NCBI GenBank assembly: GCA_044229975.1
Contig: JBGARZ010000006.1
Span: 320,001 to 384,000, forward strand
Origin: Polyangiales bacterium
GTDB taxonomy: Bacteria; Myxococcota_A; Polyangia; Polyangiales; Ga0077539
Direction: 5' to 3'
Length of the DNA: 64,000 nucleotides
The number at the start of each line of letters is the position of its first letter. The stretch's first letter is position 1. A model generated the notes under the pieces. It ran no database searches. It was not told the DNA's origin and saw nothing but the letters and a program-made list of their open reading frames with translations. Shown here piece after piece: positions 40,938-52,861 of this stretch. The translations under genes and the position numbers were made by a program.

Positions 40938-42041
40938 TCAGGTCTCGATCGCGAGCGTCTCCAGCCCCGCGACCGTCCCGCAGCGCGTGCGCCCGACGAT
41001 GAAGATGCGAATCTGCACCTCGCCCACGCGATACACCGTCACGCCCGTGAGCTCGCGGTTGACCACCTGAACCAGTTGCCGGAAGCGCGCCGCCCGGTGC
41101 TGGTCTTCGAGCCCGGCGCCCTCGTCCGCCACCACCGCGTTGCGCATCAACCGATCGAGCGTGATCTGCTCCACGCGCGTCGTCGCAGGCAAGCCCAGCA
41201 GCCCCAGCATCGCCGCGCCCGTCGGCACCGTGCGCAACCCGCTCGGCGCGTACCACGTCAGCGGCGCGTCGCTCTCCGACGTGAACAACAGCCGCTCCGT
41301 CGCGTCGGCAAACGTCGCCTGGAGCTCGCTCCCGCAGTGCCGCGCCGCCGTCGGCGCCTCCACCCGCACGAACACCTGCGTCGCCCGCAGCACCGGAACC
41401 CGCTCCGTCGACGGATTGCCCGGCGCCGTCGTCCGCACGCCCGCGACCAGCACGCCCTCATCACGCGTTGCTGCGCCGAGCACCGTGTCGCGCGCGGTGT
41501 CGCTGAGCGTGGTGAGCCGCGAGAGGTCGACGCCCGTCACGGGCAGCGGCCGCGCGGTGCTGTTGACCCGCTGCATGTTGAGCGTCGCGCACGGAATGAA
41601 GGTGCACATGGTCCCGGTGGTGGAGACGCGCGAGACGCTGGCGGTGGGCGCCGCGCCGGTGGCCGAGCGCCACGCCTCGCTGGCGACGAAGCGCCCGTAG
41701 GTGTTGCCCGTCGCGGCGGCGATGCGCCCGCGGTACACGACGGCGCCGTCGAGGGAGGTGGCGCCGATGCCGAGGCCCGCGAGGTCGAGCGCGCCGACGT
41801 AGCAGCGGTCGGCGGTGGTGCCGTCGACGCAGCGCAGGGACGACGCGTTGACGGGCGACACCCAGTAGCCGCCGCAGATGGGCGAGACGCAGCGTCGCGT
41901 GTCGTGGGCGAGGGTGAAGTACCCGTCTCCGCGCACCACGACGGAGTCGGTCGAGGTGTCGTCCTCGGCGAGCTCGGCGCCCACCTGACAGCCCGACAAG
42001 AGAAGCCCGAGGGCGAGCGAACGGACGGCGGTGAACTTCAT
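40938..42041 (-). CDS. Lipoprotein with C-terminal nuclease A inhibitor (NuiA)-like domain
   Basis: Lipobox LSGC; N-terminal RRCVSPICGGYWV; C-terminal LLFTSESDAP...VYRVGEVQIRIFIVG...GLETLAIET. Confidence 0.8.
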   Translation of the reverse strand: MKFTAVRSLALGLLLSGCQVGAELAEDDTSTDSVVVRGDGYFTLAHDTRRCVSPICGGYWVSPVNASSLRCVDGTTADRCYVGALDLAGLGIGATSLDGAVVYRGRIAAATGNTYGRFVASEAWRSATGAAPTASVSRVSTTGTMCTFIPCATLNMQRVNSTARPLPVTGVDLSRLTTLSDTARDTVLGAATRDEGVLVAGVRTTAPGNPSTERVPVLRATQVFVRVEAPTAARHCGSELQATFADATERLLFTSESDAPLTWYAPSGLRTVPTGAAMLGLLGLPATTRVEQITLDRLMRNAVVADEGAGLEDQHRAARFRQLVQVVNRELTGVTVYRVGEVQIRIFIVGRTRCGTVAGLETLAIET

Positions 42042-42108
42042 GGCGGCGCCCATGTACGACACGGTCCCACATCCGTCCAGCGCGACGACGGTGATAGAAG
42101 CCCTGCCT

Positions 42109-43143
42109 GTGACGACGCACCCCGCCCGCTTCGCTCTCCTCGCCGCCCTGTTCGGGTGCTCCTCCACCCCGACCGTTGCTTCCGACGCCTCCGTCTCATC
42201 GGACATCGCCCATATCGCCGTCGACATTCCTTCGGCCGATGTCCCTTCGAGCGATATTCCTTCTGTCGACGCTCCGTCGATAGCCGATATTTCTCCCATG
42301 ACCGATGACGCGCCCGCCCAGGGTTGTGGCGTGTGCGCGACCCGACCCGAGCCCGAGACCTCCGGCTTCCTCACCGACAACGACCTCGACGAGCTCTCTG
42401 GCATCGTCGAGAGCCGCGCCCAGCCCGGCATCTTCTTTGTTCACAACGACTCTGGCGACTCGGCCCGCTTCTTCGCCATCGACCGCACCGGAACCCGCCG
42501 CGCCACCTTCGTCCTCCGCGGCGCCACTGCTGTCGACTGGGAGGACATCGCCATCGGCCCGTGCCCCGCCGGAACCTGCCTCTACCTCGGCGACATTGGT
42601 GACAACGACCTCGTACGCCCTGGCTACTCCCTCTATCGTGTCGCGCAGCCCACCGTCCCGGACGGAACCTCCGCCAACCGTGATGTCCCCTGGGAGCGCT
42701 TCACCTTCACGTATCCCGACGGCCGCCACAACTCCGAGGCGCTGGCCATCCGTCCCGACACGGGTGACGTCTATGTCTTCACCAAGGTCACCACGCTGCC
42801 CTCGGTGATCTATCGCTTCCCGCAGCCGTTGCGTGTCGACGCATCGATGACCCTCACGCGCGTTGGCGAGCTCGCTCTTCCGGCTGGGAGTTCGGGCCTG
42901 GTCACGGGCGCCGACATCCACCCGTGCGCGGCGCGCTTGTTGGTTCGCACCTACGATCGCCTGTGGGAGTTCGGCAATGCGAGCGCTTCGTGGGAAGACC
43001 TCTTCCGCGCCGCTCCCGCGCGCATGCTGGTGCAGACCGAAAACCAGGGCGAGGCTGTTGGATGGCACTCCGACGGCCGCGGCTATGTGACCATCTCCGA
43101 AGGGCGGGGGCAGGGCCTCCACGACGCGCACTGCCCGCGCTGA
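42109..43143 (+). CDS. Lipoprotein, beta-propeller (esterase/phytase-like)
   Basis: ELSG, HNDSGD, DWEDIA, GDIGDN, YPDG, NSEAL, VTGADI, QGEAV. Confidence 0.82.
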   Translation: MTTHPARFALLAALFGCSSTPTVASDASVSSDIAHIAVDIPSADVPSSDIPSVDAPSIADISPMTDDAPAQGCGVCATRPEPETSGFLTDNDLDELSGIVESRAQPGIFFVHNDSGDSARFFAIDRTGTRRATFVLRGATAVDWEDIAIGPCPAGTCLYLGDIGDNDLVRPGYSLYRVAQPTVPDGTSANRDVPWERFTFTYPDGRHNSEALAIRPDTGDVYVFTKVTTLPSVIYRFPQPLRVDASMTLTRVGELALPAGSSGLVTGADIHPCAARLLVRTYDRLWEFGNASASWEDLFRAAPARMLVQTENQGEAVGWHSDGRGYVTISEGRGQGLHDAHCPR

Positions 43144-43333
43144 TTCCCCTCTCCCGCCGCATCTTCGCCCTCGCCCTCGCCCTCATTGGGCCTACGCCGC
43201 GGCGTCAGCCCATTCGTGAGACCGGTCGGTCGCGCGCTGTCGCTGCGCGTGGCAGTCCCTCGGACCTACGCCGCGGCATCAGCGCGGCGCGCACCGGTCA
43301 GGCCTGCAACGATCGCTCTCCGTCCCTCACCCG

Positions 43334-43813
43334 TCATTCCCTGATCGAGAAGGCACCGACTGCGTGGTCGCGCACGGTCCCCTCGACGACAACCACAGCC
43401 GGGGACGCCCCAATGTGTACGATCAGATAGCGGGTCAACGAGTGCGGACCGAAGTGCGTACAGCACACGAAGAAAAACGCGACGTCGTCGATGGTCTCAT
43501 CGGCGTGCGACGTGGTCATGACGTGTTCGTCGTCCGACCAGCCATCGGGGGAGTCCTCGAAGCCCATGATGAACTCGGTATCGAATGAAGACTCCCACGC
43601 CTGACATTGCATGCCGCCGCAGACGGCATAGCGACAGCCCGCATCGAGGAGCGCCCTCGCCACGGCTGCCCTTCGCTCGCCGTCAAAGGAACCATCGTGG
43701 TCCCACACGAGGCACGGGAAGGTGACCCCTTCGAACGGGACCACGAGGTCATCGGGCGCGGCGATGGACACCGCGTCGAGCCGTCGGTCGCCGATCTCCA
43801 GGAGAGTGGTCAA
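43334..43813 (-). CDS. Hypothetical protein (distal end of cassette array)
   Basis: LLDAGCRYAVCGG...WE...D...VMTTSH; TTG start. Confidence 0.7.
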   Translation of the reverse strand: MTTLLEIGDRRLDAVSIAAPDDLVVPFEGVTFPCLVWDHDGSFDGERRAAVARALLDAGCRYAVCGGMQCQAWESSFDTEFIMGFEDSPDGWSDDEHVMTTSHADETIDDVAFFFVCCTHFGPHSLTRYLIVHIGASPAVVVVEGTVRDHAVGAFSIRE

Positions 43814-43863
43814 TGGTCTCTACTCGTCAACGCGTGGTCGATGTACCACCACGGGCGCTGCCA

Positions 43864-44214
43864 TCAGCTCTGGTGCGGGGCGGCGGGGCTCTGCACGAAG
43901 AGCCGCGTCTGCGCTTCGTTCGAGTCGCCGCGGTTCGTCGTGACGACGACGGCGCCCGCCGCGATGCCAGCGGCGGATCGGGTCACCACCCAGCTCCAGC
44001 GCGTGAGCACCGCGAGGGGCTCGTGCAGTGCCCGCGGGTCGCGACCCAGCGGCCCCCACAGCGACGGGTCACAATACAGGATGCCCGTGGTGCGATCGAG
44101 CACGAGCGCGGACTCGCCAGTGGCGTCCGGGGAGCTCTTCAACCAGGCGACGAGCACCTCGTGTCCACGCGGGACGGCTGCGACGAACGGGAGTTCTAGA
44201 ACTTGTGCGTCCAT
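43864..44214 (-). CDS. Hypothetical protein (cassette 6)
   Basis: AAGGA RBS before ATG; lies immediately downstream of attC 44297. Confidence 0.7.
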   Translation of the reverse strand: MDAQVLELPFVAAVPRGHEVLVAWLKSSPDATGESALVLDRTTGILYCDPSLWGPLGRDPRALHEPLAVLTRWSWVVTRSAAGIAAGAVVVTTNRGDSNEAQTRLFVQSPAAPHQS

Positions 44215-44296
44215 TGTGAGTTTCCTTGTATCTCGGCGGCCGTACGCATTCGGTGCAGAGCCGCCTGTACCGGAGTCATCGGATCAGACCTCGCCT

Positions 44297-44387
44297 GTCC
44301 AACGGATGGCCGATATGCCACCGCAGCGAGCCGAGTGGGTGTTCGTTGAGGTGAGTGGGGGCGGTCGGCACCATCGGCTTGTTGGAC
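44297..44387 (-). repeat. attC site
   Basis: RYYYAAC...GTTRRRY ends (GTCCAAC/GTTGGAC) with the conserved palindromic arms; 91 bp. Confidence 0.85.
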
Positions 44388-44393
44388 ACGCCG

Positions 44394-44681
44394 TCACCTG
44401 CCCTGCCAGTAGCCTGGTTGCCGCTTGGCGTGAGTAATGGCTACCACGAGGATACGTGTCGGCTCATCACGGTAGAGGATGGCATAGGGAAATCTGGACA
44501 GGAGTGCCCGACGCACATCGAGGTAGATTGGCCAGCGATCCGGCGCCTCGACGATGAGCCCAAGAGTCACGTCGAGTTCTTCAACAAAACGCGCCGCCAC
44601 TCGCGGATCGCGTTCCGCATACCATGCCGCGGCGTCCTCGCTTTCAACGAGGGCGCGCGGGTGCAGCTCAAGGGGTTTCAC
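44394..44681 (-). CDS. RelE/ParE family toxin
   Basis: HPRA..E...AAWY, RF, P..WP, RFPYAILYR, VVAITHAKRQPGYW. Confidence 0.9.
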   Translation of the reverse strand: MKPLELHPRALVESEDAAAWYAERDPRVAARFVEELDVTLGLIVEAPDRWPIYLDVRRALLSRFPYAILYRDEPTRILVVAITHAKRQPGYWQGR

Positions 44682-44919
44682 GTCGACCGTTCGCCGCGGC
44701 GAGAATGCGGCGCCGGGCCTCGGCCCACGGGATTGGCGTCACCGCTCCCGAGTCCACCTCCGCTAGCCGTCGTTGGGCTTCCTCAGCCCATGCCCGTTCG
44801 ACCCCTTCGTCAGCCGGACCGAGATCGTCGAGGCTATCAAGCAACTCAGCGACGACCGCCGCGCGCTCGGTGGCCGGCAGTTGCAGCGCAGCAGCCAAAA
44901 CATGTTCAACGTCGTTCAT
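44668..44919 (-). CDS. Addiction module antitoxin (TIGR02574-like)
   Basis: ALQLPATERA...LLDSL...AWAEEAQRR...SG...IPW; overlaps the toxin start. Confidence 0.88.
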   Translation of the reverse strand: MNDVEHVLAAALQLPATERAAVVAELLDSLDDLGPADEGVERAWAEEAQRRLAEVDSGAVTPIPWAEARRRILAAANGRRETP

Positions 44920-44987
44920 GGGTTGGTTCTACTCCTCCTCACGCGGGGTCGCGAGTTCGCTCGGCCAACACGCCGCTCGCCGAGGCT

Positions 44988-45079
44988 GCCCAACGGCTGG
45001 CCGATGTGCCGTCGCAGCAAGCGGGGGCGACGATCCTCGGGGATGGGTAGAGGCGGTCGGCACCATCGGCTTGTTGGGA
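44988..45079 (-). repeat. attC site
   Basis: GCCCAACGGCTGGCCGATGTGCCG...CGGCACCATCGGCTTGTTGGGA; 92 bp. Confidence 0.88.
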
Positions 45080-45093
45080 GGCTACGCCACGAC

Positions 45094-45429
45094 TCACTTC
45101 CTGCGTGGGTTGGGAGGCTCAGTCGTGAACAGCCGTCGGAGCCATGACCCATACGCCCACTTGCGCCACCTTGCCATCGTCGCGGCGTACCGAACGAACG
45201 CTACCTCGTCGGTAAAGACCTCGGCTTCGTGCTCGCCCACGGTGTCGGTCAGAGACACCTCCGCAAAAGGAAATGCTCGCAACAGATCGTCCTTCGTCGC
45301 GATGGCCGCTTCACGAGTCGCGAACGTCGGCCGAAAGGACACCGCACCGGAACAACGGTCTCCATGCGAGTCCAAGATGATACCCGTCTCGACCTCGGCG
45401 AGAAGCAGGGTGTAGCGCCCGTCACCCAT
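45094..45429 (-). CDS. Hypothetical cassette protein
   Basis: Single ORF filling the space between two attC sites; alternative start 45456. Confidence 0.6.
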   Translation of the reverse strand: MGDGRYTLLLAEVETGIILDSHGDRCSGAVSFRPTFATREAAIATKDDLLRAFPFAEVSLTDTVGEHEAEVFTDEVAFVRYAATMARWRKWAYGSWLRRLFTTEPPNPRRK

Positions 45430-45481
45430 CGCACCCCAGGCAGTCGTCGGGGCCACCGCCCCGCGGGCCCGATGGGTGTCC

Positions 45482-45572
45482 GCCCAACGGCTGGCCGATG
45501 TGCCGCCGCAACGGACGCGGCGGGTTGACGACGCGTGAAGCGGTAGCGGTCGGCAGCATCGGCTTGTTGGGC
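45482..45572 (-). repeat. attC site
   Basis: GCCCAAC...GTTGGGC with conserved arms; 91 bp. Confidence 0.9.
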
Positions 45573-45662
45573 ACGCCGCCCGCTGCCCTGTCGATGCGTA
45601 TGTGCGCCGTCACGCCGTTGCCCTCCGTGAACTCCGTAGTACCGGACTCAAGACGATCGACA

Positions 45663-46214
45663 TCAGTCGCGCTTCCATAACGAGAGGAATTCCGCGGCTA
45701 CCACCAACGATCGGCCGCTGTCGGAGAACCCGAATGCCCGTAGTTCGGGCCAATCCTTGACCAACAGGAACTCCCTGTCCGGTTCGCTGGATGGGTCGTC
45801 GTAGGGGACTTTGAGCACCAAGCTTTCACAAGGCCAGTTGGGCGCGACTCGACGGACATTCCATCCGTCTGGGGTGAAGGCCTTGAGCCCTCCCCCCCAC
45901 AAGCCAGCAACGGGGATGCGCTGCCCGGCGAGCGGCCCGATGCCGACAACCGACACGGGGTAAGGGTCGCGCTCGCCCTCCGCGCTGCCGCTGTGGCCGG
46001 GTTCGTCGGCCAAGGTGTCGCCCGTCTTGGCGTCGACCACGGTCAGTCCGTTGTGGGTCAGCACAACCAGCCACTCAGTGCCCGGCGCGAAACCCATTGC
46101 GACGGGCATCTCGAAGAACTCCTCCACGGGCACCACCACCCAAGGGGGCGGCGAACTGACCCTCTGTCGACTTCGCCACTCCGCACGAATCTTTCGGATG
46201 TGTCGATTGGTCAT
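45663..46214 (-). CDS. Hypothetical cassette protein
   Basis: ORF between attC sites; GLWGGGL...DGW, WP, ELRAFGFSDSG. Confidence 0.7.
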   Translation of the reverse strand: MTNRHIRKIRAEWRSRQRVSSPPPWVVVPVEEFFEMPVAMGFAPGTEWLVVLTHNGLTVVDAKTGDTLADEPGHSGSAEGERDPYPVSVVGIGPLAGQRIPVAGLWGGGLKAFTPDGWNVRRVAPNWPCESLVLKVPYDDPSSEPDREFLLVKDWPELRAFGFSDSGRSLVVAAEFLSLWKRD

Positions 46215-46291
46215 TGAATCTTCGATCCTGATCGAAGGGCACTGTCGTGGTTGTCGTCGCACTCACGCTGCCAACCCGTAGGACCGAGGCT

Positions 46292-46382
46292 GCCCAACGG
46301 CTGGCCGATGTGCCGCCGCACTGGGTGAAGCGGATTGGCGGCGGGTGCATTGTGCGCGGTCGGCACCATCGGCTTGTTGGGC
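46292..46382 (-). repeat. attC site
   Basis: GCCCAAC...GTTGGGC with conserved arms; 91 bp. Confidence 0.9.
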
Positions 46383-46388
46383 GGCCCC

Positions 46389-47138
46389 TCAATAGCAAGC
46401 GTCGTGAGTGGCATCTTGATCGAGTTCCAGATCAATCACAGGCAGTCGTCGATCGAGCCAGAGTCCCGCTGGTGTGAAGGCAATCGCAGCCTTCGTGCCT
46501 CCCACGGACTGAACGCGACCGGCCGCCGTCAGGGTTTGAGCCACTATATCAACAGCCAACTCATTGAATGAAACTCGGTCATCTAGTGACTTAAATGGCC
46601 ACGAAAGCCCCAGAGCTTTCAGGTTCATGGCGTAATTTTCAAGGCCCGGAATGAGCGTGTTGTAAAATGGATGGTATCCGTTACGAAGCACTGCACGCTC
46701 TGCAATGCAAGGATTGTCCTTGTGCAGTGCGTGCTGCGACGGTGTCGCTCCGTGATGCCCAGTGTGCACATGATAGAGCACGGGGTTGCCGTCTTCGTAT
46801 CCAGCGACATGAACCCCTCCCCGCAATTTCTCCCAACTCCGCCCGTCTGCATTCCCCGCTTCTGCGAGAAGACTGGCGAGTTTTGCCCCAGCCGTAGATG
46901 GCGTATCACTGCCAGTGAGTTGGTCGCTGAACTCTTTCACTAATTGATCGCACTGTCTGGAACCAAAGCGAGCGTTTCCCCAAACGGCAAATCCAATATT
47001 TGAATCCGCAGAATAATGTATCTTGGAGGCCCCGAATCGAATCTCGATTGGCCTGTCTGGCCTCGTCACCGTGATAGCTGAGTCACCCACAAGCACGCAG
47101 CCGAACGCGGCCGAAACCTCAGATACTACGAGTGTCAT
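46389..47138 (-). CDS. Ntn-hydrolase/proteasome-beta-like cassette protein
   Basis: Starts M-T-L-V-V (Thr at position 2), GDSAIT, KI, VAGY, SVGG; GGAAGGAAG RBS; AT-rich. Confidence 0.7.
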   Translation of the reverse strand: MTLVVSEVSAAFGCVLVGDSAITVTRPDRPIEIRFGASKIHYSADSNIGFAVWGNARFGSRQCDQLVKEFSDQLTGSDTPSTAGAKLASLLAEAGNADGRSWEKLRGGVHVAGYEDGNPVLYHVHTGHHGATPSQHALHKDNPCIAERAVLRNGYHPFYNTLIPGLENYAMNLKALGLSWPFKSLDDRVSFNELAVDIVAQTLTAAGRVQSVGGTKAAIAFTPAGLWLDRRLPVIDLELDQDATHDACY

Positions 47139-47151
47139 GGTTCTTCCTTCC

Positions 47152-47237
47152 GCCCAACGGCTAGCCTATGTGTCGCCGCAACGGGCGTGATGATTTGATA
47201 GTTGGTGACGGCGGTCGGCCACATCGGCTTGTTGGGC
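47152..47237 (-). repeat. attC site
   Basis: GCCCAACGGCTAGCCTATGTGTCGCCGC...CATCGGCTTGTTGGGC; 86 bp. Confidence 0.85.
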
Positions 47238-47251
47238 GGTTGCTCGCTTCG

Positions 47252-49030
47252 CTATGTGAAAAGGGCCATCAGCGCTTTTGTCTGCTTAAGTCCTTCCACC
47301 TTCACGGTATCGGATCCCCGCCGCGCATAAACGATGTCGCCCACATCAGAAAGAGATTTTTGGGACGGAATCCAAATGCAAACGACTGACAAGCCGCGGT
47401 AAACGATGCAGTCAACACTGCTAAGCACAGCAGTCTTAAGAGGTTCGCTCAGTTTCGAGTTTTCGATGTGGCGGATGATCTCTCGATTGTAATTCTCAAG
47501 GGATACCGCAAGGGCCGATGCTTCACGATCGATCCCTACGCAGAACCGTTCTCCAACATGAACGGCCTTGATACCATAGAGCGATTCGATGCGGTCTTTG
47601 TCTGTAGCTTTGTCCGCCACGCCCACGAAAATCGCACCGCTAGAGGTCGGGCCGAGATTAGCGATACCACAGATGGTGTTGACAATCTTCTCGAGGATAT
47701 TCGGATCCTTGGTGTGTCCTTCGTCGAGACGGAGCATGCCCTGTTTGCACTCGAATGCGTTGGTTTCGATCCGCGATCGCCTCAATGCGTTTTCGAACGC
47801 AATCGCTGCGCCTGCGCCATGACTCAATACAGGTGGGTCCTTGTCCTCGAATTGATCTTGGATCAGCCCTTTGATCGTGTTGATGTTTTGGAGGCGAGGC
47901 TCGCTGCGAATTTGCCCTGCAGCGATGTTTAGTTTGTCGTGTGCTCCTTGGAGAGATCGGACAATCGCGGTCTTGTCCTTTGGACTTCGACGCTGTCTCA
48001 CGCACAAATCGAAGAACGCCATGAAGACTGCAAAAAACGCCGTCTTTGCAGGATTCGGGTTCCCTGGACTCACGATCCGCCGAAATGCCGTAGCTGAGTC
48101 GTCCACACTCTCAATCACGTCACGAATGATAGCAATCGTGGAAAGAATCTCGTGCTTCAGGCGGGTGCCTCCGTACGTCGCCAGTTGGGCGTTGAGTTCC
48201 CGATATTCAGAGGTCGTCGCATTGTAGATCCCATCCAAGGCTCCGCCGGAGAACGCAAACGGCTTCCCTTGAAGGACTGAAATTGCGAGATCCGCCACCA
48301 TCTGCTCATCCTCGCTTTCGCGCAACTGGCTGCGACGTAAGATACCCTGCTTACACCAGAAGGTATCGTCAGCCTTGATTCGGTAGGAGGGCATGTCGCC
48401 GCCAGCGTCCACACTGATCTCTGGCATCTGTGCGAGGTCAAGCGACTCGCTCGAGACATCCCCACGAATTTCTGCTGAAAGCTCACGAACGGCCGTCGCA
48501 AAGGGCGTGATGACACCAGCCTGCCGGCGCTCTTGGTCACTAAGTTGCCGCCCATAGGCGTTGATTCTCCCGAAGACCTCCGTCACTGACTGTTCGTTGT
48601 TCGCCGGGAATTCAGTCACGGCGAGAGTGTACTCCAGAAACCTGGCACACTCATCGGCACTAAAGAGGGCGCTCTCCTTAGGTACTGGAGGGATTTTACC
48701 TTCGTCCGCGAGTGACCGCGCTCGCGCCAACTGCGAGACGTCGAAGTACCTCCCATTGACTGGAAACGCATCCTCGATGAATGAAAATATAGCGTTGAGT
48801 CTCTGCATTCCATCCAGAATCTCGAAGCTCTTGTTTCCGTCCTCCCGAAGTGTGTATGCCAACAGCAGCAGAGGAATAGGGAACCCCTGGAGGATAGAGT
48901 CAACCAGCTTCTGTTTCTCTTCGATGCTCCACACCAGCTTCCGCTGGTACCTTCGATTCACTCGGAAGTTCCCGTCCCGAAACTCTCGATATGCCTCTTG
49001 GACACTCATTCCGCGCGGCGTAACACTCAT
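47252..49030 (-). CDS. DUF262 (GmrSD/ParB-like) plus C-terminal Schlafen/AlbA_2 domain protein
   Basis: YQRKLVW, DSILQGFPIP, ILDGMQRL, VFGRIN..G..LS.QE.R; C-terminal ETNAFECK, ICGIAN, GAIFVGVAD, YARRG. Confidence 0.88.
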   Translation of the reverse strand: MSVTPRGMSVQEAYREFRDGNFRVNRRYQRKLVWSIEEKQKLVDSILQGFPIPLLLLAYTLREDGNKSFEILDGMQRLNAIFSFIEDAFPVNGRYFDVSQLARARSLADEGKIPPVPKESALFSADECARFLEYTLAVTEFPANNEQSVTEVFGRINAYGRQLSDQERRQAGVITPFATAVRELSAEIRGDVSSESLDLAQMPEISVDAGGDMPSYRIKADDTFWCKQGILRRSQLRESEDEQMVADLAISVLQGKPFAFSGGALDGIYNATTSEYRELNAQLATYGGTRLKHEILSTIAIIRDVIESVDDSATAFRRIVSPGNPNPAKTAFFAVFMAFFDLCVRQRRSPKDKTAIVRSLQGAHDKLNIAAGQIRSEPRLQNINTIKGLIQDQFEDKDPPVLSHGAGAAIAFENALRRSRIETNAFECKQGMLRLDEGHTKDPNILEKIVNTICGIANLGPTSSGAIFVGVADKATDKDRIESLYGIKAVHVGERFCVGIDREASALAVSLENYNREIIRHIENSKLSEPLKTAVLSSVDCIVYRGLSVVCIWIPSQKSLSDVGDIVYARRGSDTVKVEGLKQTKALMALFT

Positions 49031-49202
49031 CTTGCCCTCTTTTCTATCCTCTCTCTGTCGCAGGGTCGGATCAAGGTTTGCTTGGCAAGGGAGTGCCATG
49101 TCGAAGACTCAAGCTCGCCCGGCCGATTCTGGCGTACTGGAGTCGTGTTGTCATTGAGTATCGACGCACTGCCGGAGAGGATTGTAGATCGCTGCGACGC
49201 CC

Positions 49203-49222
49203 GCCCAACATCTCATTCACCC
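49203..49222 (-). other. attI-like site
   Basis: Minus strand GGGTGAATGAGATGTTGGGC: a core GTTRRRY without attC arms, at the head of the array. Confidence 0.55.
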
Positions 49223-49251
49223 GCGCGCCCACTACCGAATCCCGCCCTGGC

Positions 49252-49347
49252 GCTGCTCGCCCGCTTGCTGCCCAAATCCATATCCCCGTTCGCGTTGTTC
49301 GCCCGCTCGCTGCCGAGTTCCACAACCCCATTCGCGCGTCGTTCGCC
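49252..49347. repeat. Degenerate 42-bp tandem repeat (2 units plus partial)
   Basis: GYTGYTCGCCCGCTYGCTGCC...CCCCRTTCGC at 49252 and 49294. Confidence 0.65.
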
Positions 49348-49370
49348 TATGCCCATCCCCCCCACGCCCA

Positions 49371-51695
49371 TCACCCCCGCCGCCGTCGCCTCCTCGCCAT
49401 CCCCGCTGCCATCCCCACTACTGCCAACACCCCGAGCCCGCCGCTCTTCCCACTTCCATTCCCACTACCGACCACCCCGCATCCGCAGCCCGACCCGCCT
49501 GCGTCCGTCGTCGCGCCGCCGCGAATCAGCTCCACTGGCCTCGGCAGTTCCACGCCCCCATCCACGCTCACCGCGCGCCCCATCACCACCTCCAGCACCG
49601 CCGGCTCCGCGTCCGCGCTCTCCGGCTCATCCACCACGCGCGCCCGCACCTCCACCCGATGCTCACCCGCCAGCTCGAACGTCGGCGCCGTCACATCCAC
49701 CCACGGTCCTGCCGCCCACCGCGACCACGTCATCCCGTCCACCCGCCACGAGTACTCGTGCGGCCGATCGCTCACCGCCGACGCGCCCGGCGCCACCCGC
49801 ACCCGCACCCGCGCGCTCGTCCCCACCGGGTCGACGCCCAGCACGCTCGCGTCCGTCTCCGCCGCCGCGATGCTCGGCATCGTCGCGCGCCGATACCGCA
49901 GGTCCATGAACAACCCGAGATACCGCGACCCGCCCTGCTCCATTCCCACCAAGCCGTTGTCGGGAAGCTCCAGGTTCACCGTCCCCACCGGCATCCCCAT
50001 CGCTCCCGGAACCGGAATCGACGGAATCGCGATCGCCGGAATGCTCCCACCCAACATCCCGATGGCCGTTCCCAACAACCCGTCAAAGGACATCGCCAGC
50101 CGCGCCGGCGCATCACTCACCAGCGTCGACCCCGTCACCACCGTACCGCTCGTGCGCACCGTCCCGAGCGACGGCCGCAACCCACCCGCGTCGCGCATCA
50201 GCGTGAGCGGCGCCGTCACGTCGGTGGTCACCGTGAGCGCCCGCACGTAGCGCTCCTCCGACCACACCATGAGGTCGAGCGCGAGCCGCTCGAAGCGCAG
50301 CGTGAGCGTCGGCGACGGGCCCGACGACATCGCCACCGTCGGCGGACGCTGCGGCCGTAGCACCAGCGCCACCGGCCCCGACAGCGACGGAAACAGCACG
50401 TTGCGCAGCGACGGAACGATGATCGAAAAGGTCCCCGACGTGAGCTGCTGCGAGAGCGAGCTCGTCACGCCAAGGCAGAACGTCCCCGAGTCCCACAATT
50501 GATACAGCGCGTGGTTGAGGAAGGTCTCCGACAACCCCACGCCGAGATCCATCGAGCGCATTCCCCCCGGAACATCGTTGCGCCGCAGCGCCGTCCACTC
50601 GGGGATCTCTGGCACCGTCGGCTCCGCCACGCGCGGCACGCAGTTGTTGTGTCCGCGCGACTGCGCCACCCCGAACACGTTGAGCGTCATCCCCTGCGTC
50701 GACACCTCGGCGTCGTGCGCGTGGTCGCCCGCCGCAATCACGATGGCCGACTCGCCGCGCACACCCGGGCTCACCGACGCCAGCAGCGCCCCGACGTTGC
50801 CCGCCATCTCGACACCCAGCAGCGACGGAACCGTCTGCCCGTCTTCATACCGACACCGCGCTCCCTGCGCGACGCTCCCCAGCGGACACCCCGGCGGATC
50901 AGGCATCGACGCCTGGCTCAACGCATCTTGAATGGGCCCCAGCGCACCACCGATGGCGCCACCAAACGCGCCCGAGATGGTTCCTCGCAGCACCGGGAGC
51001 AGCCCACAGAGTCCGCCGCCCGAGCAGCCCACCCACGCGTCGTCGAAGCCCTCTCCCGGCGTCTGCTCGATGACCTCCGTCGCCCCCATCGCGGGCACAA
51101 GCTCCGCCCGGAAGTAGTCACGCCGCGACGGGTGCGTGTCCCGCCGGATCACGATGGCCGTCCGCAGCCCGATGTACGACCGCGCGCCGCGCGCCGTGTC
51201 GATGGTGAGCCGCGTGTCGATGCCGTCCGCGCAACCGCCGCACATGCTGTTGCAGAACAGCGTGCACGTCCGCAGCGGAATCTCTCCGCGGAAGCCCACG
51301 CGCAGCCGCACCTCGATGCGATCGGGCGCCACGAAGAACAGCTCCAGCGGAGGCGGACTCGTCGGCAGCACCAGGTCGAGCCCGCAGCTCCCATCGCGGC
51401 ACACCACGTAGCGCCCGACGCCGAAGTTACCCGTCACCAGCGGGATGGGCAGCCGTCCACCGGTCACGCCCAGCAGCAGGTCGGCGCCGAGCTGCGACAC
51501 GTTGCGCAGCCCCTGATCGCTCACCCGCACCTGCATCGCCCGCGGCACCCGCGTCTCCGGCGTCACCGGATACCCCCGCGGAATCGGCCCCAGCGCACCG
51601 CCCGCGCACGATGAGCAGCCCCCGCCGCTGCACCCCGCCACCGCGATCGCCACGACCATCATCCGAACCAGCGCGACGACGTCCCTGAGGTGCAT
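49371..51695 (-). CDS. Large secreted protein with MYXO-CTERM-like tail
   Basis: Signal/lipobox AVAGC, GCSSC; C-terminal Ig-like YSWRVDG, then GCGC...TM...RRRRRR. Confidence 0.85.
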   Translation of the reverse strand: MHLRDVVALVRMMVVAIAVAGCSGGGCSSCAGGALGPIPRGYPVTPETRVPRAMQVRVSDQGLRNVSQLGADLLLGVTGGRLPIPLVTGNFGVGRYVVCRDGSCGLDLVLPTSPPPLELFFVAPDRIEVRLRVGFRGEIPLRTCTLFCNSMCGGCADGIDTRLTIDTARGARSYIGLRTAIVIRRDTHPSRRDYFRAELVPAMGATEVIEQTPGEGFDDAWVGCSGGGLCGLLPVLRGTISGAFGGAIGGALGPIQDALSQASMPDPPGCPLGSVAQGARCRYEDGQTVPSLLGVEMAGNVGALLASVSPGVRGESAIVIAAGDHAHDAEVSTQGMTLNVFGVAQSRGHNNCVPRVAEPTVPEIPEWTALRRNDVPGGMRSMDLGVGLSETFLNHALYQLWDSGTFCLGVTSSLSQQLTSGTFSIIVPSLRNVLFPSLSGPVALVLRPQRPPTVAMSSGPSPTLTLRFERLALDLMVWSEERYVRALTVTTDVTAPLTLMRDAGGLRPSLGTVRTSGTVVTGSTLVSDAPARLAMSFDGLLGTAIGMLGGSIPAIAIPSIPVPGAMGMPVGTVNLELPDNGLVGMEQGGSRYLGLFMDLRYRRATMPSIAAAETDASVLGVDPVGTSARVRVRVAPGASAVSDRPHEYSWRVDGMTWSRWAAGPWVDVTAPTFELAGEHRVEVRARVVDEPESADAEPAVLEVVMGRAVSVDGGVELPRPVELIRGGATTDAGGSGCGCGVVGSGNGSGKSGGLGVLAVVGMAAGMARRRRRRG

Positions 51696-51767
51696 GACCT
51701 CAACGCGTATCACGAACGCCACGCCCGTCGGTGACGTCCCTCCGCCCATCTGATACCCGTGTCTGCG

Positions 51768-52793
51768 ATGCAGCACCCGACGCGCTTCGACTCTCTGCTC
51801 GACCTCGCGAAACTCCCTTGGTTCGAGGTCCGCGACGGCCGCCTCGTCGTGAGCGACCCCTCGGTCGGCACCGCCATCGACGTCCACACGCACCTCGCGC
51901 TCTCCTTCGTGCGGCCCAACCAGCTCGACCTCCAGCGCGGTCACCCCAAGGCAGAGCACTACCTCCCCGACCACCGCCCCTTCGACCTCGACGTCTACGT
52001 CAACAAGAACATCATCCCCGAAGACATGCACCGCATGGAGCGCGACCTCTCCATCGGGTCGTTCACCTCCGGCGGCATGCGCGCGACGCACACGGTCCCC
52101 AACCTCGCCCGCGAGATGGGCGAGCTCCAGGTCGCGCAGTCCGTGCTGCTCCCCATCGACTGGCCCGCGCTCTCCGACAACGCCACCACCTGGCTCACCA
52201 CCGTCCGCGGCGACAGGCGCTTCATCGGCTTCGGCTCCGTCCACCCCTACGCCCGCGACGTCGCCCGCAAGCTCGATCGCCAGATCGCCCTCGGCGCTCG
52301 CGGCATCAAGGTCCACCCCGCGGTGCAGCTCGTTCACCCCGCCGCGTCGCGCGCGCTCGAGCTCTACCGACTCTGCGCCGAGCGCGACCTCCCGGTGTTC
52401 TGGCACTGTGGCCCGGTGGACATCGAGCCGCCGCTCGGTCGCTACCTCTCGCAGGTGCGCCACTACGAGAAGGCCATCGCCGAAAACCCCGGCACCACCT
52501 TCGTGCTCGGCCACTCCGGCGCGCTCCAGATGGACACCGCCATCGGCTACGCGCGCCGCTACCCCAACGTGTGGCTGGAGATCGCCTCGCAGTCCCTCTC
52601 CAACGTCCGCCGCCTCGTCGACGAGGCCCCGCCCGGCCGCCTCATGTTCGGAACCGACTGGCCCTTCTATCACCAGGCCGTCGGGCTCGCGAAGGTGTTC
52701 ATGGCCACCGAGGGCAACGACGCCGCACGCCACGCGATGCTGCGCGGCAACGCCGAGCGCCTCCTCAAGCTCGCTCCCGACAACACCCCGTAG
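51768..52793 (+). CDS. Amidohydrolase family (Amidohydro_2) protein
   Basis: IDVHTH, GSVHP, GIKVHP, WHCG, LGHSG, MFGTDWP. Confidence 0.9.
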   Translation: MQHPTRFDSLLDLAKLPWFEVRDGRLVVSDPSVGTAIDVHTHLALSFVRPNQLDLQRGHPKAEHYLPDHRPFDLDVYVNKNIIPEDMHRMERDLSIGSFTSGGMRATHTVPNLAREMGELQVAQSVLLPIDWPALSDNATTWLTTVRGDRRFIGFGSVHPYARDVARKLDRQIALGARGIKVHPAVQLVHPAASRALELYRLCAERDLPVFWHCGPVDIEPPLGRYLSQVRHYEKAIAENPGTTFVLGHSGALQMDTAIGYARRYPNVWLEIASQSLSNVRRLVDEAPPGRLMFGTDWPFYHQAVGLAKVFMATEGNDAARHAMLRGNAERLLKLAPDNTP

Positions 52794-52861
52794 CTGGCAA
52801 TCTGGTACGAGCGTCAACGATCTGTCACCCCCCCCGACGGGGTGGTAGTGTCGTCGCCGGA

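Follow-up and report, generated by a model that had tools for sequence, protein, structure and literature searches.

What is the origin of an integron cassette array that has no integrase gene beside it, and could such an array still take up cassettes? The question is raised by a minus-strand array at positions 43334–49347 of the window, i.e., the whole stretch of 64,000 nucleotides analyzed here from the Polyangiales bacterium assembly GCA_044229975.1 (10.0 Mb, about 71% GC, 39 contigs, 93% complete). This source genome is designated G000, its contigs are given as C numbers (the window belongs to C23, 556 kb) and genomes of relatives as other G numbers. A previous sequence-only reading had described the array as clustered attC sites without an integron integrase (CALIN), either served in trans or a relic. 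We identified at its head a homolog of the integron site attI, which that reading had overlooked, and we consider it probable, if only modestly so, that the window holds an integron array whose integrase gene (intI) was lost and which would be served in trans by the IntI encoded on C4.

An attI Homolog at the Head of the Array

The head element extends over 49203–49347 on the minus strand, starting 24 nt past the stop codon of the host gene at 52817–49371, and contains a crossover point G|TT at 49209, a core at 49209–49203, a 5-bp spacer at 49214–49210, a degenerate left box at 49221–49215 and two upstream repeat units of approximately 42 bp. In an attI site such as attI1, the first cassette begins with a GTT core, accompanied by a 5-bp spacer, a degenerate left box and upstream repeats, and this layout was present in the window head. 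The 140-bp element upstream of the first crossover was found repeated at C2:257027, C20:73233, C28:41740 and C14:18950, and related forms were found at C19:436055, C2:354654 (the C2-end head) and C4:247880, the last of these beside intI. Among relatives, G014 and G021 have the terminal motif of the window head directly next to an intact intI, and G002 has the upstream repeat of that head next to intI.

An independent attI model, i.e., a profile built exclusively from other genomes (ten sites adjoining intI, their crossovers picked by eye), gave ten matches (nhmmer, E ≤ 20), all of them inside the eight heads of G000, with an E-value of 0.044 for the window head. When a 37-position matrix was used, the window head ranked second among 149,323 GTT sites in G000; the top six sites were heads, the C2-end head ranked eighth and the C4 site 17th. 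The core of the first cassette matched at 9 of 9 positions at the window head. As judged from these sequence comparisons, the element at 49203–49347 is an attI homolog of a kind that stands beside intact intI elsewhere in the lineage. Since the array has its own attI homolog at the head, it is not an array tail that became detached, nor was it seeded as a cluster at a random site.

attC Sites of the Array

Five imperfect palindromes of 86–92 bp, as reported in the sequence-only reading, were confirmed on the minus strand at 47152–47237 (attC 1, 86 bp), 46292–46382 (attC 2, 91 bp), 45482–45572 (attC 3, 91 bp), 44988–45079 (attC 4, 92 bp) and 44297–44387 (attC 5, 91 bp), each by core match, fold and covariance model. 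attC sites are organized with inner L″/L′ arms carrying extrahelical bases, an unpaired spacer and a variable centre, and their bottom strand folds better than the top strand. All five repeats folded into a hairpin (z −2.4 to −5.4), the strand opposite the open reading frames (ORFs) gave the more stable fold in each, and the R″/R′ cores were complementary around AAC/GTT in all five. The folds and the consensus structure contained two single-base bulges and a variable loop, with invariant arms and variable centres. A covariance model made from the five repeats scored 90–105 bits on the repeats themselves, a match by construction, while its highest score at any unrelated position of the 64 kb was 13.8 bits. 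In an alignment of 49 matches that was fitted to the model and includes one reverse-strand duplicate row, paired changes on both sides were found at 10 of 25 pairs (shuffle mean 5.1; 10 reached in 0 of 500 shuffles). Rfam gave no match at E ≤ 1.

Each repeat follows the stop codon of a minus-strand ORF, at a distance of 6–14 nt in four cases and of about 90 nt for the 199-aa ORF. Complementarity between the core at the start of a cassette and its own downstream R″ is what circular cassettes should show once integrated. It was claimed for this array before and was seen here at 7 of 7 positions for cassettes 1–3 and at 6 of 7 for cassettes 4 and 5. Genome-wide, 29 of the 32 internal cassettes were scored, the other three having no parseable GTT core. 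Their own-core match was 124 compared to a shuffle mean of 93.2, and 20,000 shuffles never reached this value. The anatomy of the window array is thus almost certainly real. With five attC sites on one strand at a spacing of 494–860 bp, it falls under the CALIN definition applied here (at least two attC sites on one strand, at most 4 kb apart, without a neighboring integron integrase).

Integron Content of the Source Genome

No tyrosine recombinase had been noticed in the 64 kb, and this was borne out for the whole of C23, which contained none of the 12 PF00589 matches of the genome and no TIGR02249 match. A genome search for intI and further attC copies revealed one intact intI, on C4, and 43 copies of the attC family (E < 0.01) at 10 loci. 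As many as 41 copies were located in cassette loci, of which seven are arrays and the eighth is a single site with a head, and this distribution runs counter to the possibility raised earlier that such repeats occur genome-wide without relation to the 3′ ends of ORFs; the other two, on C8 and C39, were lone sites without a head. Seven of the eight attI-like heads were found at integrase-less loci, and a head was present in all five integrase-less multi-attC arrays with an assembled 5′ end. The array at C23:1–5165 starts at the contig end and is therefore outside this count.

The only integrase scoring above the TIGR02249 cut-off of 265 bits, which was used as the criterion for IntI, is encoded at C4:248120–249070, divergent from an array. 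It is full-length, contains the R-K-H-R-H-Y motifs and scored 414.7 bits. The closest IntI relatives found were from Polyangiales records, including closed Sorangium genomes at 74–77%. C4 is the only place in G000 where intI adjoins attI, so the window array is not a complete integron. The CALIN label given to it earlier holds by the published definition; the choice between service in trans and a relic is changed by the intact IntI on C4, the array's own attI and the several sister arrays. A lone CALIN is ordinary, and the retained attI at many loci is the notable point. Most cassette products in G000 were without known function; the others contained toxin-antitoxin, immunity, HNH, AIPR, RelA/SpoT and kinase domains.

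A recombinase on C19 was considered as a second IntI and rejected (201 bits compared to the cut-off of 265, paired with an IS91-family transposase). This pair of transposase and tyrosine recombinase genes (C19:433344–436055; L022:8345–11056, minus strand) is located exactly at an attI crossover, and its end is formed by a 111-bp attC-like hairpin from a different family, i.e., the pair is packaged as a cassette. The same cassette is also the first at the C2-end head, and an 89% identical copy was found at a head in G001 (L053). Judging from this arrangement, it could take part in moving attI-side DNA.

The Locus and Its Distribution in Relatives

The genes flanking the array were found on one contig in five of eight congeners, separated by about 70 bp to 7.4 kb of DNA that differed in each and contained neither attC nor a head (0/5). 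Since the gaps in the congeners lack both, the array is by this comparison a lineage-specific insertion, and it does not occupy a conserved locus like that of sedentary chromosomal integrons, being absent there in 5/5 congeners. The gap between the convergent genes, 43143–49371, is an insertion hotspot because each of the five congeners has different DNA in it.

Matches to intI at E ≤ 1e-60 were detected in 7 of 24 genomes of the family compared to none of the 16 genomes taken from the order's other families, and three of five further genomes checked were above the cut-off. Three matches were present in G019 and four in G044, several of them cut by contig ends. The attC pattern was found in 22 of 31 family genomes (control 0). 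Seven arrays in relatives, chosen via attC clusters, comprised four with an orphan head, one with a 5′-truncated intI, one complete integron and one cut by a contig end; six further heads found by the head pattern were left out of this tally. The DNA past the intI stop codon varied among the family genomes, and a conserved mobile-element end of 150–260 bp beyond intI was seen in Sorangium loci and not in those of the family. No transposon ends were found.

In the Sorangium genomes G048 and G049 (L145, L148, L150, L151, and L156), the 150–260 bp past the intI stop codon were kept where intI is nearly gone. The stretch holds a TTGACA and a possible −10 box directed toward the cassettes, recognized by eye, and deletions at these loci may keep a promoter beside attI. 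Tandem attI units were present at L054:1050–1204 (G008) and at L059 and L060 (G004). The attI of the complete integron in G002 was split by a 1.3-kb insertion sequence (IS)-like element (L037:5472–6785).

Fate of the Integrase Gene

Decayed intI remnants were found adjoining two of the seven orphan heads in G000, those on C20 and C28. Both begin near nt 480 of the gene and scored 160–235 compared to shuffle maxima of 85–111 (0/200). They were about 71% identical to intact intI genes, which were 76–86% identical to each other. Although the two remnants (C20:73391–73630 and C28:41971–42378) share this start, their heads are only about 71% alike; the shared start could be due either to a deletion hotspot with short GC-rich homology or to one deleted ancestor that moved afterwards.

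Two broken copies of intI were present in G018. The closed Sorangium genome G049 contained eight matches to the attI motif (control 0). Of these, one adjoins a full-length intI interrupted at codon 151 by a stop, one a gene with a frameshift, one a fragment from within the gene, one a 3′ stub and three 3′-end traces; nothing of intI was found at the eighth. Hence seven of eight sites, and six of the seven without a full-length gene, retain intI-derived DNA, a birth-and-decay series that supports loss of intI as the usual route. A genome may also end up without a helper integrase, as in G049, and relics exist too. For the window, we infer from the sister loci that a whole integron would have landed at the locus and then lost its integrase gene by deletion.

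Cassette Sharing and Possible Use in Trans

In established integron chemistry, IntI would join the folded bottom strand of the attC of a circular cassette to the head at G|TT (49209), and the newest cassette would be the one next to the head. If orphan heads still receive cassettes, as cassette sharing suggests, the window array would still be loaded and shuffled in trans by the single intact C4 IntI.

The C19 and C2-end heads match at 78 of 113 nt and both lack intI, and they have the same first cassette (100% identity over the 130 bp assembled). The second C19 cassette recurs at the start of C23 with 97–99% identity, and we infer that the C23 start joins the C2 end. The first cassette next to an orphan head of G043 shared 97.2% identity over 1731 bp with a cassette located deep inside the complete integron, and the two attIs were 81% alike. 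Such near-identical first cassettes at diverged orphan attIs suggest loading in trans, as far as sequence likeness can indicate it. Besides, heads are better conserved than the adjoining intI remnants: the C20 head was 86–93% identical to two other heads, compared to about 71% between its remnant and intact genes. Evidence of this kind is weaker for the window, where cassettes 3 and 5 have sisters in other arrays (91 and 94% identity) with different neighbors.

Several observations weigh against loss of intI at the window followed by service from C4. With respect to loss, comparison of the window head with four intact genes gave scores within the shuffle range (1–37 of 200 shuffles as high), and no remnant scored above shuffles at the C2:257027, C14, C19 and C2-end heads. 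Only 24 nt separate the window head from the host stop codon, and loss of intI there is read from other loci only. With respect to service in trans, IntIs often prefer their own attI; the left box of the window head differs from that of the C4 attI, so it may be poorly used by the C4 IntI. The 91–94% identity of the shared cassettes is close to that of the heads (86–91%) and would be expected of an old duplication no less than of recent traffic. Gene conversion or the own recombinase of the transposase cassette could be behind the sharing between C19 and C2-end, and a few bases next to the core differ at the G043 junction. Another intI may be missing from the 93% complete, 39-contig assembly. 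In G049, the only full-length intI is the one with a stop at codon 151, leaving no detected helper for the eight sites, and no more than five of the eight attI matches had attC-like sites in a strict scan.

Alternative Explanations

That the integron lost intI and its array then froze as an inert relic, with attI a leftover not used by the C4 integrase, is unlikely in our view, while being in keeping with the eight attI matches in G049 without an intact intI, the divergent left box of the window head, a last cassette without attC and the proposal of CALINs as a step to fixation in the part of Cury et al. (2016; PMC4889954) available to us. A frozen array is harder to reconcile with five cassettes that all have open ORFs and intact attCs, with the full match of the first-cassette core, with heads that are better kept than the neighboring intI remnants and with recently shared first cassettes at other orphan heads.

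The absence of an intI remnant and the short distance to the host gene would instead be expected if the array had arrived without intI, as an IntI-excised circle running from an upstream attI GTT box to an attC (attI plus cassettes) that integrated at a secondary site and founded a satellite array. An orphan attI in G014 was 94% identical to an intI-linked attI over 87 nt, with homology starting from the GTT box and no trace of intI; the second, 75-bp attI unit in G008 begins exactly at the crossover of the first; and the window locus is empty in the five congeners. The 5′ boundary in the window, however, does not begin at that box, selection on attI alone would produce the same boundaries, repeat slippage would produce the same tandem units, and the remnants on C20 and C28 and in G018 and G049 show that intI arrived at many loci. 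We regard this route as rather improbable for the window.

It is very improbable that one large integron was broken up and misplaced by the assembler. G000 is in 39 contigs and the attC repeats and the transposase cassette do break contigs (C2 end, C23 start), but the array lies inside a 556-kb contig between genes that are adjacent in five congeners, the eight heads differ from each other, and a closed genome shows the same multiplicity. Seeding at a random attG site, or a detached tail without a real attI, is hardly credible: although attG insertion was demonstrated, and proposed for small CALINs, in the accessible text of 10.1101/2022.09.11.507474, the flank would then be unrelated host DNA, while unlinked loci share conserved DNA upstream of the first crossover, which matches sites adjoining intI, and the independent attI model largely refutes this reading.

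A broader proposal, which we put forward only tentatively and consider somewhat unlikely, is a distributed integron in Polyangiales, in which attI-bearing satellite arrays would reach new places in the chromosome by IntI-made circles without a transposase and one integrase would load and reshuffle at least eight platforms simultaneously. If true, many CALINs of other bacteria would be live acceptors, with attI unseen since only class 1–3 attI were searched for.

Comparison with Known Systems

The literature points below refer to the portions of each source that were available. CALINs were defined as at least two attC sites without a neighboring intI, with four origins listed including loss of intI, and cassette exchange between CALINs and integrons was described (PMC4889954). 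The window array resembles these CALINs in having at least two attC, no adjacent intI, about five cassettes and an IntI elsewhere in the genome. In contrast, the arrays described here keep an attI homolog, and remnants were seen at 2/7 orphan heads (G000) and 6/7 sites (G049) compared to intI pseudogenes near 15/279 CALINs in that study, in which attI was matched only for classes 1–3, and exactly. Large genomes were reported there to be poor in integrons, and genomes of 10–13 Mb with about eight platforms run against this.

The sedentary integrons of Xanthomonas (10.1101/2025.06.18.660453) are similar in their homogeneous lineage-specific attC, toxin-antitoxin and defense-like cassettes, frequent decay of intI and extra CALINs at other loci. 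They differ in that their intI is at one locus (ilvD) and their CALINs are at conserved loci, with attI at those CALINs unreported in the accessible text, whereas here the intI flanks vary among genomes, some genomes have 3–4 intI matches and the window locus is empty in congeners. Single attC sites lacking integron integrases (SALINs) inserted at attG (Loot et al., 10.1101/2022.09.11.507474) likewise place cassettes at many chromosomal positions with a distant IntI, but attG is unrelated host sequence and the heads described here are homologous to attI. In the account of hitcher genetic elements (PMC11389934), mobilization of CALINs in trans is an accepted view, and their origin is attributed to loss of the integrase or to translocation. 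CALINs are treated there as helper-mobilized arrays, whereas one that has its own attI could in addition acquire first-position cassettes.

A myxobacterial survey (10.64898/2026.09.14.751636) listed 192 complete integrons in 3,229 genomes, attI was reported only beside intI in the available part of 10.1101/2022.02.06.479319, and that of PMC8876359 had no bearing on orphan attI. No report of attI-headed CALINs at many loci was found in the mostly open literature searched, and supplements of the myxobacterial survey and the Xanthomonas preprint may list such arrays. CALINs and their mobilization in trans have thus been published already, and what is new is the retained attI at seven integrase-less loci of one genome and in relatives.

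A retained attI makes the question of how CALINs originate directly testable: an attI model trained on the lineage can tell the routes apart, and its outcome for these arrays indicates former or satellite integrons and not attG seeding. If orphan attIs work in trans, a genome would have several first-position slots, with host promoters that differ from slot to slot, and defense-like genes are among the cassettes.

Cassettes and Surroundings of the Window Array

All cassettes are on the minus strand. Cassette 1 (47158–49209, 2051 bp, 55% GC) has a 615-aa ORF (49099–47252) with a GmrSD_N domain (PF03235, E 1e-19) and a weak match to Schlafen AlbA_2 (PF04326, E 0.004, below cut-off). PADLOC matched its N-terminal part only, to NsnA (E 1e-26) and PD-T4-2_A (E 8e-14), and from these matches the product is likely to be anti-phage. 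No family match was obtained for the ORFs of cassette 2 (46298–47158, 860 bp, 56% GC; 249-aa ORF 47138–46389), cassette 3 (45488–46298, 810 bp; ORF 46262–45663) or cassette 4 (44994–45488, 494 bp; 120-aa ORF 45456–45094). Cassette 3 has counterparts in the C20 array (its cassette 4, 91% identity) and in G021 (the first cassette of its complete integron, 81% identity), and cassette 4 of the window showed 83% identity to a cassette in a G001 array. Cassette 5 (44303–44994, 691 bp) is predicted to encode a type II toxin-antitoxin system, with the antitoxin at 44919–44668 (PF09720) and a ParE toxin at 44681–44394 (PF05016); cassette 5 of the C2 array shares 94% identity with it, and a G002 cassette 80%. 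GC rises along the array from 55% beside the head up to 64–66% farther out.

The tail (43334–44303, minus strand) starts at a GTT core and contains a 116-aa ORF (44214–43864), for which ESM Atlas gave no match above 0.77, and a 159-aa DUF7684 ORF (43813–43334). No closing attC and no attC-like hairpin was found in it, and its DNA was absent from the site in congeners; it is likely to be an eroded last cassette. At the far end of the array, a cluster of palindromic repeats resembling repetitive extragenic palindromes (REPs) at 43186–43290 is outside the attC family and belongs to a family of 144 copies in 70 clusters genome-wide. Three of eight arrays were located within 2.5 kb of such a cluster compared to 0.5 at random (p 0.009), an association that was not used, since the control ignores intergenic bias.

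A search for the cassette promoter (Pc) gave one sigma-70-like site, inside cassette 1, compared to 1.4 expected by chance, and promoter and terminator scans of the window were at chance level. Transcription reading through from the co-directional host gene at 52817–49371 into the cassettes is possible. No tRNA or tmRNA was found in the window as an insertion target. Three DNA sequencing runs contained 6–10% of the words of the window, and no RNA run was listed. Contigs from these runs included portions of the tail, of cassettes 3 and 5 and of the host genes, and none spanned the array; their joints were not used as evidence of shuffling, the joint sides being mostly 20–42 letters at 85% likeness.

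The host gene upstream of the head (ORF 49371–52817, 1148 aa) had no Pfam or NCBIfam match; its product ends in a Cys-Gly motif, a hydrophobic stretch and an Arg run, which we take to resemble the myxobacterial C-terminal sorting signal. Beyond the tail, the ORF at 40938–42431 (497 aa) is predicted to encode DUF6748 fused to a NuiA-like nuclease inhibitor domain.

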